Made by a program: the position numbers and the translations under genes. The notes beneath the pieces are model-generated. The model had not been told where the DNA came from and did no database searches. It saw only the letters and a list, made by a program, of their open reading frames with translations. From an uncultured Bacilli bacterium (GTDB lineage: Bacteria; Bacillota_I; Bacilli_A; RF39; UBA660), in contig CAKOSP010000001.1 in assembly GCA_934102335.1 (NCBI GenBank), positions 110,197 through 174,196 on the forward strand: a DNA stretch of 64,000 nucleotides, written 5' to 3'. Positions 27,531 through 30,477 of this stretch are shown here, in pieces (position 1 is the first letter of the stretch; each line of letters opens with the position of its first letter).

Positions 27531-29639
27531 ATGAAAGACGAAGAAAAATATTTGTTTGGTACAAACGTTAATGAAATAATTGAACTTAATAGTGATGAGG
27601 AAGAAGATGTTTTAGAGGATGATAACATAGAAAATGAACCAGTTGTCGATCAAAAACTTGAAAAAAAGAAACAAAAAAAAGAAAATAAATTAGTTTGTGC
27701 ATGGAAACAAATGTCTAAGAAGAAAAAAATCATTTTAATTGTTATACTAAGTTTAATAATTATCTTGGTGGTAGGACTGATATTGTTTTTTGCACTTCAC
27801 AAGGAACAGGCGGGGCCATCAGTTATTTTGCAAGAAGATAACTATCGCTATGAAAATGGCAAGCTTGTATTTTTAAATAAAGATAAAAATGAAATTGGTA
27901 CTTATGAATGTGAACATAAAGATGAAAATTTATGTTACGTTGCATATTATAAAGATGAAGACAATTTAGATATTGACGTTTATAAAAATGAAGATGATTC
28001 TTCATATTTAAAAAGAAGTTTAATATATAAAGACAATTTTGTTTTTATTACAGATACTTCAGATAATAAAAACACTAATGTTAAATTATACAACATCAAA
28101 ACAAATTCAGTTGATGGAGAATATGCCTTTATTAAAAATTATGGAGATTATGTAATTGCTTCTAAAGATGACAAATACGGAATCTTAGAATTCGAATCAG
28201 AAAAAGCAATTACTAAAGTAAATATGGATTATGACTTTTTAGGCTATTATCCTAGTGACGAAAACATAATATTTAAAGATAAAACTGGGTATGGAATAAT
28301 GGATGTAGATAAAAAAATCTATGTTTCCAAAATCAAGGAACAAATTCGCTCATACACAAAAGACTTAATAGTAGCTGCCTTAGATAGCAATTATATCGTA
28401 TATGACTATTCCGGTAAAAAAGTATCGTTAATGGATGCTGAATATATAAAAATAGTATCAGATTATATTTTACTTATTAATGACAAAAAATTATATGTTT
28501 ATGATTTAGATTATAATCTTTTGAATATGGATGGCCTACAATTAGAAACACAAGATTATAACAATATTATAGTAGTAGATAAAAATGGTGAAGTAAAAGA
28601 AACAAAGCGGGCTTTTGAATTTAATGTTGATGGAGATTCTGTAAAAATTAAAATAAATGATAATGAGTTTAGTATAAATGTAAATGAAGCAAAAATTAAC
28701 AATAACCTTGCTTACATAAAATATTCTGACAATAAATTATACTTTTATAGTGATAAAGAAAAAAACAAATCCTTAGGTAAATACAACTGTCAAAATGCAA
28801 ATAATGTTTCGAAAGATGATATAGTTTTTAATAATTGCTTTTTAGCAAAAGAATCTAAATTAATTGAAAGAAAGTCTAATGGTGACTTAGGATATTTGCC
28901 AATTTATAATGACAGATTTGTGTTTATTCAAGATGAGCAGACTGGTTCTAGTTCAAGAAATATCGTGTTCTATGATCTAAAAATGGATAAGGTCTTAAGT
29001 AATTATACCGAAGTAGATGCTGGATATTATAATAAAAACGGTTTTGTTAATATGGCTAGTAGTGATAATGCTATAATTATAGCTCGTAAACAAAATGGCA
29101 TAGTACTTGCATTTAAAATTACATCAAATGGAGTAGAAACTATTATAAAAAGCAACTATAATGCCACAGAAATTAAATATTTAAATGAATATTTGCTTGC
29201 CAAATATAATGATGGAACATATCACTTATTTAAAAATGATGGAACAGAAATTACTAAAAATATTAGTACTACAAGCGAAATAGTTAATTATTATAACAAT
29301 TATATAGTGGTTAAAAATAACGATAAATACCAAATATATAACCTTGAAAATGGTCAAATAATTAGTGATGAATTTAATTACGTTGACTTAAATGGAACAT
29401 ATTACGTTGGTATTATTAATAAAAAATTAAATGTATATAATTACAATTCTAAAAATAAATTATTATGCAAAGATCTTGAGATAGATGGTGATGATTATCC
29501 GAATCTATATACAATTAAATATTACAATGCCTCAAATATCATAGTAACTATTCAATCTAAAGAATATAGTTTTGCTGGTAATATGGAATACACTGTTGAT
29601 GGTGTTACACATTCATGTGAGTTGGAAAATGAAGAATAA
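27531..29639 (+). CDS. Membrane-anchored protein with an acidic cytoplasmic N-tail, one TM segment and a large extracellular domain of WG-repeat-like (KWG/KYGI) modules
   Basis: RBS acggaggtataattATG. TM IILIVILSLIIILVVGLILFFAL. Repeated DKYGILEF...DYDFLGYY and GYGIMDVD motifs resemble WG-containing repeats. Confidence 0.55.
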   Translation: MKDEEKYLFGTNVNEIIELNSDEEEDVLEDDNIENEPVVDQKLEKKKQKKENKLVCAWKQMSKKKKIILIVILSLIIILVVGLILFFALHKEQAGPSVILQEDNYRYENGKLVFLNKDKNEIGTYECEHKDENLCYVAYYKDEDNLDIDVYKNEDDSSYLKRSLIYKDNFVFITDTSDNKNTNVKLYNIKTNSVDGEYAFIKNYGDYVIASKDDKYGILEFESEKAITKVNMDYDFLGYYPSDENIIFKDKTGYGIMDVDKKIYVSKIKEQIRSYTKDLIVAALDSNYIVYDYSGKKVSLMDAEYIKIVSDYILLINDKKLYVYDLDYNLLNMDGLQLETQDYNNIIVVDKNGEVKETKRAFEFNVDGDSVKIKINDNEFSINVNEAKINNNLAYIKYSDNKLYFYSDKEKNKSLGKYNCQNANNVSKDDIVFNNCFLAKESKLIERKSNGDLGYLPIYNDRFVFIQDEQTGSSSRNIVFYDLKMDKVLSNYTEVDAGYYNKNGFVNMASSDNAIIIARKQNGIVLAFKITSNGVETIIKSNYNATEIKYLNEYLLAKYNDGTYHLFKNDGTEITKNISTTSEIVNYYNNYIVVKNNDKYQIYNLENGQIISDEFNYVDLNGTYYVGIINKKLNVYNYNSKNKLLCKDLEIDGDDYPNLYTIKYYNASNIIVTIQSKEYSFAGNMEYTVDGVTHSCELENEE

Positions 29640-30477
29640 ACCTACTTTAATAGCAATCATAGTACTTTTAGTTATCTTTGTCCCCCTTAGTATTTATACA
29701 ACTTATTTAAAATTATTTAAAGTTGAAGAACTTCCTGATACAAAAACTCAGGAAGTTACTTCATATTTAGATGATATAGAAAAATTTGTTGATATTAAAA
29801 CTGATGGGCAAAGAACCAGTATAGGTACATTTAAGATTGCAAATAAAGATTATACTTTTGTTTTAAAAGATAATACAGTATACTTGCATTCTATAGCAGA
29901 TAATTTAAATATCTTAGATTATCAAGCTATAAAGTTTTATAATAGTTATATTGAAAATAATTTGTTAATTGTTAAAAGAGACAATAAATGGGGAATTATA
30001 AATTTGAATAGTTTACAACCAGTTGTAAAACCCGAATATGATTATTTAGGTTTAATTGATGATGAAAAAGATGGTGTTTTAAATACTAATACTTTTATTG
30101 GATTAAAAAATAACTTTTATAGTTTATATAAATTGGGAGATTCATTCAAAAAGGTTAGTTCTGATTTCAAAGATATTATTTATACATATAATAATAATCA
30201 AAAAGTAATTATTACCATAAATAATGATCGATATAAAGTATACGATTTTAATGGTAATAATCTTTTAGAAAATTATGAGATTACAAATGCTGCTATAACC
30301 AATAATTATTTAGCTATAATTGATTCTCAAAATAATTTATATTTATTTAATAGAGTACCAGGGTTACCATTTGAAAATTATAGTGTCAAAGACGTATCTA
30401 AGCTAAAGCTTAAAGAAAGTGCTAACGCTTTAGAAATATACCTTAATGATAATCTTTATAAAAATATTGATATTTAA
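29629..30477 (+). CDS. Membrane-anchored WG-repeat-like protein, translationally coupled (ATG overlaps the upstream gene by 11 nt)
   Basis: MKNKPTLIAIIVLLVIFVPLSIY signal anchor. DNKWGIINLNSLQPVVKPEYDYLGLID WG-like repeat. Confidence 0.55.
   Translation: MKNKPTLIAIIVLLVIFVPLSIYTTYLKLFKVEELPDTKTQEVTSYLDDIEKFVDIKTDGQRTSIGTFKIANKDYTFVLKDNTVYLHSIADNLNILDYQAIKFYNSYIENNLLIVKRDNKWGIINLNSLQPVVKPEYDYLGLIDDEKDGVLNTNTFIGLKNNFYSLYKLGDSFKKVSSDFKDIIYTYNNNQKVIITINNDRYKVYDFNGNNLLENYEITNAAITNNYLAIIDSQNNLYLFNRVPGLPFENYSVKDVSKLKLKESANALEIYLNDNLYKNIDI

Follow-up and report, generated by a model that had tools for sequence, protein, structure and literature searches.

A conserved operon for two paralogous single-pass membrane proteins in uncultured low-GC gut Bacilli

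Repeat proteins of the WG_beta_rep/KWG type are bacterial, all-beta, hairpin-rich and extracytoplasmic, and no function has been assigned to them. YycH and YycI of Bacillus subtilis, auxiliary regulators of WalK, are encoded by adjacent genes and share an N-terminal membrane helix and related extracytoplasmic domains. At the RNA level, the PGK motif (RF03040), an orphan candidate for cis-regulation that comes from gut metagenomes, is named after phosphoglycerate kinase genes. Likenesses to each of these systems are found at a single locus in DNA of an uncultured Bacilli bacterium (contig CAKOSP010000001.1), where a window of 64,000 nt (the whole stretch analysed, with a guanine-plus-cytosine (GC) content of ~26% throughout) carries two plus-strand genes, here called p1 and p2. 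The locus is a two-gene operon for paralogous single-pass membrane proteins, which uncultured low-GC gut Bacilli inherit vertically as a core pair and not as an accessory cassette. The proteins share with WG_beta_rep/KWG repeats all of the general properties named above, and one blade per module matches the WG profile weakly; unlike those repeats, they score below the family cut-off, p1 contains a single Trp, and the unit of duplication is a module of ~290 amino acids (aa) with an N-terminal Cys pair. The likeness to YycH/YycI is one of architecture only (adjacent genes, N-terminal anchors and related outer domains), with no sequence or fold match and no adjacent two-component system. The likeness to beta-propeller domains consists of structural matches of AlphaFold2 (AF2) models, and the p1-p2 leader matches the PGK RNA, which here precedes a membrane-protein operon and a terminator hairpin. 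The family to which p1 and p2 belong is unannotated and confined to an uncultured lineage, whereas their general kind, the membrane-tethered beta-propeller-like repeat protein, is familiar.

Both p1 and p2 are real genes, with the following arrangement:

27531-29639, plus strand: p1, 702 aa, ATG start

27519-27523, plus strand: ribosome-binding site GGAGG of p1, read from the sequence and kept in the leader alignment

29629-30477, plus strand: p2, 282 aa, ATG start, protein beginning MKNKPTLIAIIV

29629-29639, plus strand: 11-nt overlap of p1 and p2, ATGAAGAATAA, with the p2 ATG within the final p1 codons

A mechanical listing of open reading frames (ORFs) starts p2 at a TTG at 29572, but the real start is the ATG at 29629, and the identical start is used in independent gene calls on four other metagenome contigs. 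The 11-nt overlap described in the original prediction is therefore present as such, and the downstream start overlaps the upstream stop in an arrangement that is kept in relatives, as expected of an operon pair. In the window, a strong Shine-Dalgarno sequence is lacking before the p2 ATG, which makes reinitiation after p1 termination the likely route by which p2 translation would be coupled to that of p1; many orthologues have AGGAGG inside the 3′ end of p1.

Relatives of p1 are present in 213 species genomes when each GTDB species is represented in the scan by one genome. The 80 of these that are listed are all uncultured gut metagenome-assembled genomes from human, rabbit, mouse or chicken, their labels being Bacilli, Tenericutes or Mycoplasma sp. 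and, in a few cases, evidently wrong. Among the 83 loci from which pair counts were taken, p2 follows p1 in 60, including the divergent loci L089-L093, and in 59 of these 60 other pair-bearing loci the two genes remain closely linked, with a spacing of -38 to +20 nt, the exception being a locus with a disrupted p1. The co-occurrence check that the original prediction had proposed thus comes out in favour of a true pair. In the p1 tree, the 18 loci clearly without p2 fall into a single clade, joined by two deep branches, which points to a single gain or a single loss of p2. An aminoacyl-tRNA synthetase (aaRS) gene lies downstream in 57 loci and is either valS or, in nine, that of another class I enzyme, so the pair retains an aaRS gene as its downstream neighbour regardless of which enzyme it encodes. 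In the latter group (L024, L025, L037, L057, L063, L068, L069, L070 and L075), the downstream class I aaRS is ~28% identical to ValS. Several loci have lepA and hemW upstream or hrcA-grpE-dnaK downstream, and the remaining neighbours are variable and mostly housekeeping genes. No second copy of p1 was found within the 64-kb window. The occurrence in 213 species genomes, the usual downstream aaRS gene, the tracking of the p1 tree by p2 presence and the lack of a duplicate in the window together identify the pair as a core component of the lineage, and the earlier description of its architecture as accessory-type is not borne out.

The acidic N-terminal tail and single transmembrane segment originally predicted for p1 are confirmed. 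Residues 1-40 contain 16 Asp/Glu against 2 Lys/Arg and are followed by a Lys-rich membrane-proximal stretch, EEEDVLEDDNIENE occupies residues 23-36 within the tail, and the one hydrophobic segment in a hydropathy scan (~63-88) coincides with a helix at residues 63-88 in the AF2 model. Similarly, p2 has a hydrophobic segment and modelled helix at residues 4-29, and the similar module ascribed to it earlier, which includes DNKWGIINLNSLQPVVKPEYDYLGLID (residues 118-144), is real: the p2 family profile aligns best to residues 59-399 of p1, that is, to its helix and first module (hhalign probability 99.9%, E 1.7e-33). The N termini of both proteins are probably cytoplasmic and the modules outside, as indicated by the positive-inside rule and by conserved Cys pairs in the modules. 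Conservation is not limited to the outer parts. The p1 tail (aa 1-62) holds an N-E-I-x-E motif at residues 14-18 that is 67-89% conserved, and W58, L61 and a Lys cluster are also conserved near the membrane. In the p2 membrane helix (T-L-I-x-I-I-x-L-L-x-x-F-x-P), eight positions including F17 and P19 are 86-93% conserved, in contrast to the p2 ectodomain, where identity falls to 23-28%.

The ectodomain of p1 consists of two homologous modules of ~290 aa, which follow the tail and the membrane helix:

27816-28706, plus strand: p1 module A, aa 96-392, supported by hhalign against module B; all-beta in the model, with a predicted local distance difference test (pLDDT) score >90

28707-29636, plus strand: p1 module B, aa 393-702, supported by hhalign against module A and by the AF2 model

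In a profile-profile comparison with hhalign, modules A and B align over 250 columns with a probability of 100% (E 6.9e-40). Each module opens with a conserved Cys pair (C127/C135 and C420/C436), set in Y-x-Y-E-N-G-x-L-x-F-L...G-x-Y-E-C...C in the first copy (~residue 105) and in Y-F-D-G-K-L-Y-F-Y...G-x-Y-x-C...C in the second (~residue 400), and the positions that are invariant in a 96-sequence p1 alignment are G110, L112, G123, Y125, C127, C135, C420, C436 and D468. The invariant Cys pairs are consistent with an extracytoplasmic location. The p2 protein consists of a membrane helix and one module, and probably arose when the 5′ half of p1 was duplicated. The Y-x-C...C blade motif is present in 57 of 60 p2 homologues, with an F-D-C...C variant in two more; in the clade of the window, the Cys-containing N-terminal blade of p2 is deleted (~30 residues; region 29629-29760), and the p2 of the window is free of Cys. 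In the divergent lineage of L090, a third gene (4926-6296, 456 aa) after p1 and p2 matches the p2 profile at 73 bits, indicating a further expansion of the module family there.

The AF2 model of p1 has a pLDDT of 87.7 and a predicted template modelling (pTM) score of 0.73, with residues 1-53 disordered (pLDDT <50) and an all-beta ectodomain above 90, and that of p2 reaches a pLDDT of 90.7 and a pTM score of 0.80. Propellers are the best structural matches of both models (WD40-like, eIF3b, BamB/PQQ-like and peptidase S9), and the p2 model can be superposed on the propeller of eIF3b over ~180 residues at 3.8 Å. The modelled fold, with four-stranded antiparallel blades and propellers as its best structural neighbours, is thus propeller-like and has no close solved relative.

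The original prediction described both proteins as WG-repeat-like, and on this point the Pfam check that it proposed gives a negative answer: WG_beta_rep (PF14903), which has a gathering score of 25.6 bits, finds no match in p1 and matches p2 with 13.6 bits (E 0.069), below the cut-off. That prediction was to fail if neither a significant WG match nor conservation of the pair elsewhere was found; the first was not found, whereas the second was, and the prediction thus holds in part. The motifs that suggested the assignment are distributed differently from what had been described, as p1 contains KYGI (residue 215) and GYGI (residue 253), while KWGI is found only in p2, in a single copy at residue 120; the sole Trp of p1 is W58, on the cytoplasmic side. 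The ectodomain of p1 had also been described as ~600 aa of Tyr/Asn/Lys-rich repeats. Tyr does amount to 8.8% of p1, against 5.6 ± 2.1% in 31 other proteins of the window (1.5 standard deviations above background), but the Tyr/Asn/Lys richness is largely that of the genome background at 26% GC, and neither p1 nor p2 contains a uniform array of ~35-residue units with a Trp-Gly in each.

Nevertheless, p1 and p2 may belong to the WG-repeat superfamily (WG_beta_rep/KWG) as genuine members that have diverged strongly and lost most of their Trp-Gly signatures, a reading that we consider rather unlikely while giving it real weight. Weak matches to PF14903 recur in p2 (residues 121-143), in one blade of the p1 consensus, and in a single p1 relative, P0075, which passes the gathering score with 28.5 bits. 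Where such matches can be located, they sit on one blade of the form K-[YW]-G-[ILV]-I...Y-D-Y-L-G, so that a remote WG relationship is plausible but unproven, and the hairpin motifs Y-x-V-Y-D-x-x-G-K are, we assume, similar to the WG consensus. The size of the family tail also suggests a wider superfamily, since an exhaustive HMMER search with p1 retrieves 205 representatives at E ≤ 1e-30, 816 at 1e-10 and 3570 at 1e-3, although this tail may reflect composition. On the other hand, the family consensuses remain under the gathering score just as the proteins of the window do (module A 14.9 bits, p2 10.4 bits), and 62 of 66 p1 relatives have no PF14903 match whatsoever, the other four, P0075 included, matching at E < 0.1; among p2 relatives, 5 of 14 match at E < 0.1, with a best E of 1.4e-3. 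Membership in the WG superfamily is in any case a matter of ancestry and is compatible with any functional reading of the pair.

Searches beyond WG repeats leave the family without a named relative. When p1, p2 and a secreted 736-aa protein encoded upstream of them were scanned against Pfam, NCBIfam, PHROGs and PADLOC, nothing rose above threshold, and on these nulls a phage, defence or named-family origin was rejected. The sub-threshold matches to Orf78, ETRAMP, FliL, TMEM154 and similar families all cover the membrane helix and the charged region and are accordingly read as compositional. Sequence searches of the Protein Data Bank (PDB) with both profiles returned no significant match, the best being membrane-helix regions of SNARE proteins and an LPXTG protein (E 0.11), and a profile search of an index of 5.8 billion proteins yielded no further remote relatives. 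A large protein index contains 114 clusters of p1 homologues, 620-800 aa in length, none with an informative Pfam domain, and the names attached to them are only "hypothetical protein [Bacilli bacterium]" and one "FtsL". The latter stems from the Joint Genome Institute (JGI) label "cell division protein FtsL" on P0010, which no domain match supports. Fusions with NAD_binding_4 and Pth in the exhaustive search look like chimeras of gene calling or assembly and were not used. No functional information was found in the literature on WG repeats or on the PGK motif.

The operon is preceded by a leader of ~370 nt that contains a structured RNA, as had been predicted, together with further regulatory features:

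27129-27157, plus strand: sigma-70-type promoter TTGACA-17-TATAAT, matching the consensus at 12 of 12 positions

27330-27420, plus strand: PGK-motif RNA (RF03040), 61.7 bits against a gathering score of 50.8

27439-27480, plus strand: terminator-like hairpin with a T-run directly after the PGK motif, a candidate attenuator

The order of elements is promoter, PGK RNA, terminator hairpin, a second promoter-like site and ribosome-binding site. The PGK motif also occurs ~110 nt before p1 orthologues in L001 (58.5 bits), L091 (61.9 bits) and L092 (55.3 bits), and just below the gathering score in L093 (50.5 bits), and it was not detected in 16 more distant loci that were scanned. The same 12/12 promoter is present in L001, and the -35 hexamer is invariant in five aligned leaders. 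The hairpin is kept in five lineages, with two-sided changes in the stem that preserve pairing (C-G to T-A), and the leader as a whole is conserved across the five although their p1 proteins are only 43-59% identical. At the DNA level, the leader is more conserved than the proteins encoded downstream (27129-27530 in the window, 5600-6000 in L001, 2585-3000 in L091 and L092, and 200-620 in L093). Partial conservation extends to the region 5′ of the PGK motif (27165-27320), and the structured element may for this reason exceed the Rfam model. Taken together, these features suggest that the leader acts as a transcription attenuator. At the other end of the operon, a promoter-like site overlaps the end of p2, no terminator was found between p2 and the T-box leader of valS, and two features outside the pair follow:

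30507-30674, plus strand: T-box leader of valS, 97.9 bits against a gathering score of 93

30711-33239, plus strand: valS, downstream of the pair

The function that we tentatively prefer, at somewhat less than an even chance, is that of a housekeeping extracytoplasmic scaffold at the outer face of the membrane, an envelope component of the lineage. The two proteins would associate via their membrane helices or their modules into a three-module platform on this face, which may bind a wall glycopolymer or a partner protein, while the motif in the p1 tail would contact a cytoplasmic partner and the conserved p2 helix partners in the membrane. The role would then be that of a housekeeping cell-envelope scaffold rather than an accessory adhesin. 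In the closest relatives, envelope genes lie just upstream of the pair, encoding a penicillin-binding protein, MraY, FtsW and a polysaccharide deacetylase in L001, a deacetylase in L091, and YfhO and GtrA in L092. Several observations weigh against a scaffold. No homologue of known function was found in the Pfam, NCBIfam, PHROGs, PADLOC and PDB sequence searches, and p2 is not indispensable to p1, given that a whole clade lacks it. Apart from the aaRS gene, the flanking genes differ between loci and mostly have unrelated housekeeping roles, making the envelope neighbourhood weak evidence. In addition, sequence identity is ~30-40% for p1 and ~25% for p2 against ~63% for ValS, which also fits a surface protein under diversifying pressure.

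The faster divergence of p1 and p2 than of the adjacent ValS would likewise be expected if the Tyr-rich ectodomains formed a surface adhesin or lectin that binds host or dietary glycans or mucus and aids gut colonization by these reduced-genome bacteria. The gut origin of all listed homologues and the exposed, membrane-tethered, all-beta and aromatic-rich character of the domains agree with such a role, as does the secreted 736-aa family that is often encoded directly upstream, with homologues just before p1 in 28 of the 83 related loci. The member of this family in the window (24893-27103) has no significant Pfam or NCBIfam match, and its N-terminus (...ATLGATYAYFQAS) is one that we take to resemble TasA/SipW-type signal peptides. 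An adhesin is nonetheless unlikely: the pair keeps a fixed position relative to the downstream aaRS gene, with no second copy in the window and no signs of mobility or phase variation seen, the Tyr excess over the genome background is slight, and a conserved cytoplasmic motif and membrane helix are unexpected in a pure adhesin.

These two conserved elements, the short motif in the p1 tail and the p2 helix that is better conserved than its ectodomain, raise instead the possibility of a transmembrane sensor or regulator pair resembling YycH/YycI, in which the ectodomains would sense a signal from the envelope or the outside, and the helices or the tail of p1 would in turn adjust the activity of a kinase, protease or synthase in the membrane. 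Two adjacent, paralogous and N-terminally anchored proteins also suit this possibility, to which we give a low probability: genes for a histidine kinase, a sigma factor or a protease do not recur next to the pair, the tail of p1 is predicted to be disordered rather than an anti-sigma domain, and Pfam Sigma_reg_N matches are marginal and confined to 2 of 66 members. Membership in the YycH/YycI type proper was rejected because no kinase or regulator genes are among the conserved neighbours. An RsgI-type anti-sigma factor was also rejected, on the low pLDDT (<50) of the 53 N-terminal residues of p1, the lack of an RsgI_N match and the lack of an adjacent sigma gene.

A stronger form of the scaffold proposal can also be considered, in which p1-p2 is an envelope machine that is essential and defines the lineage, such as a scaffold for division or wall assembly, and is placed under riboswitch-like control by the PGK RNA in the subclade of the window. 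This is improbable, but if true, envelope growth would be tied to a metabolic signal, and the PGK motif would gain its first well-defined regulon member with a terminator expression platform for ligand tests.

The surroundings of the pair in the window include further genes of note. A large serine recombinase gene (22252-23913) has a stop that overlaps the start of a CotE-like ORF (23906-24340, 144 aa), which matches Pfam CotE only from profile position 39 of 177 and may be a truncated or element-interrupted spore-coat gene. This ORF, 3 kb upstream of the pair, hints at a sporulation- or germination-related pair of envelope proteins, with a CotE match at E 1.6e-25, and the hemW-hrcA position of some loci presumably recalls the sporulation-gene-rich lepA-hemN-hrcA region of Bacillus. 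CotE is near the pair only in the window, p1 and p2 have no sequence or profile match to sporulation families, and the promoter is of perfect sigma-70-type consensus, all of which makes a sporulation role very improbable. The CotE-like ORF lies next to a stretch of unusual genes (14535-21432), which encode a GT4-kinase fusion, a NUDIX-ATP-grasp fusion and a UvrD-like helicase. At 8333-12640, a run of genes is on the minus strand and GC skew is locally reversed there, and the rest of the window is uniformly plus-strand with positive skew.

Low-GC gut Bacilli of this kind, formerly binned as Tenericutes, occur widely in the guts of humans and animals, and since none of the listed genomes comes from a cultured organism, the envelope biology of the lineage is largely inferred. 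The present findings do not overturn current understanding, and their value lies in annotation and in a testable regulatory element. A conserved but unannotated pair of large surface-exposed proteins is a candidate for a new Pfam domain family and may serve as a lineage marker or surface antigen. The most useful by-product is the combination of PGK leader and terminator, which assigns the motif to a defined target operon and offers a concrete construct with which to test what this orphan RNA senses.

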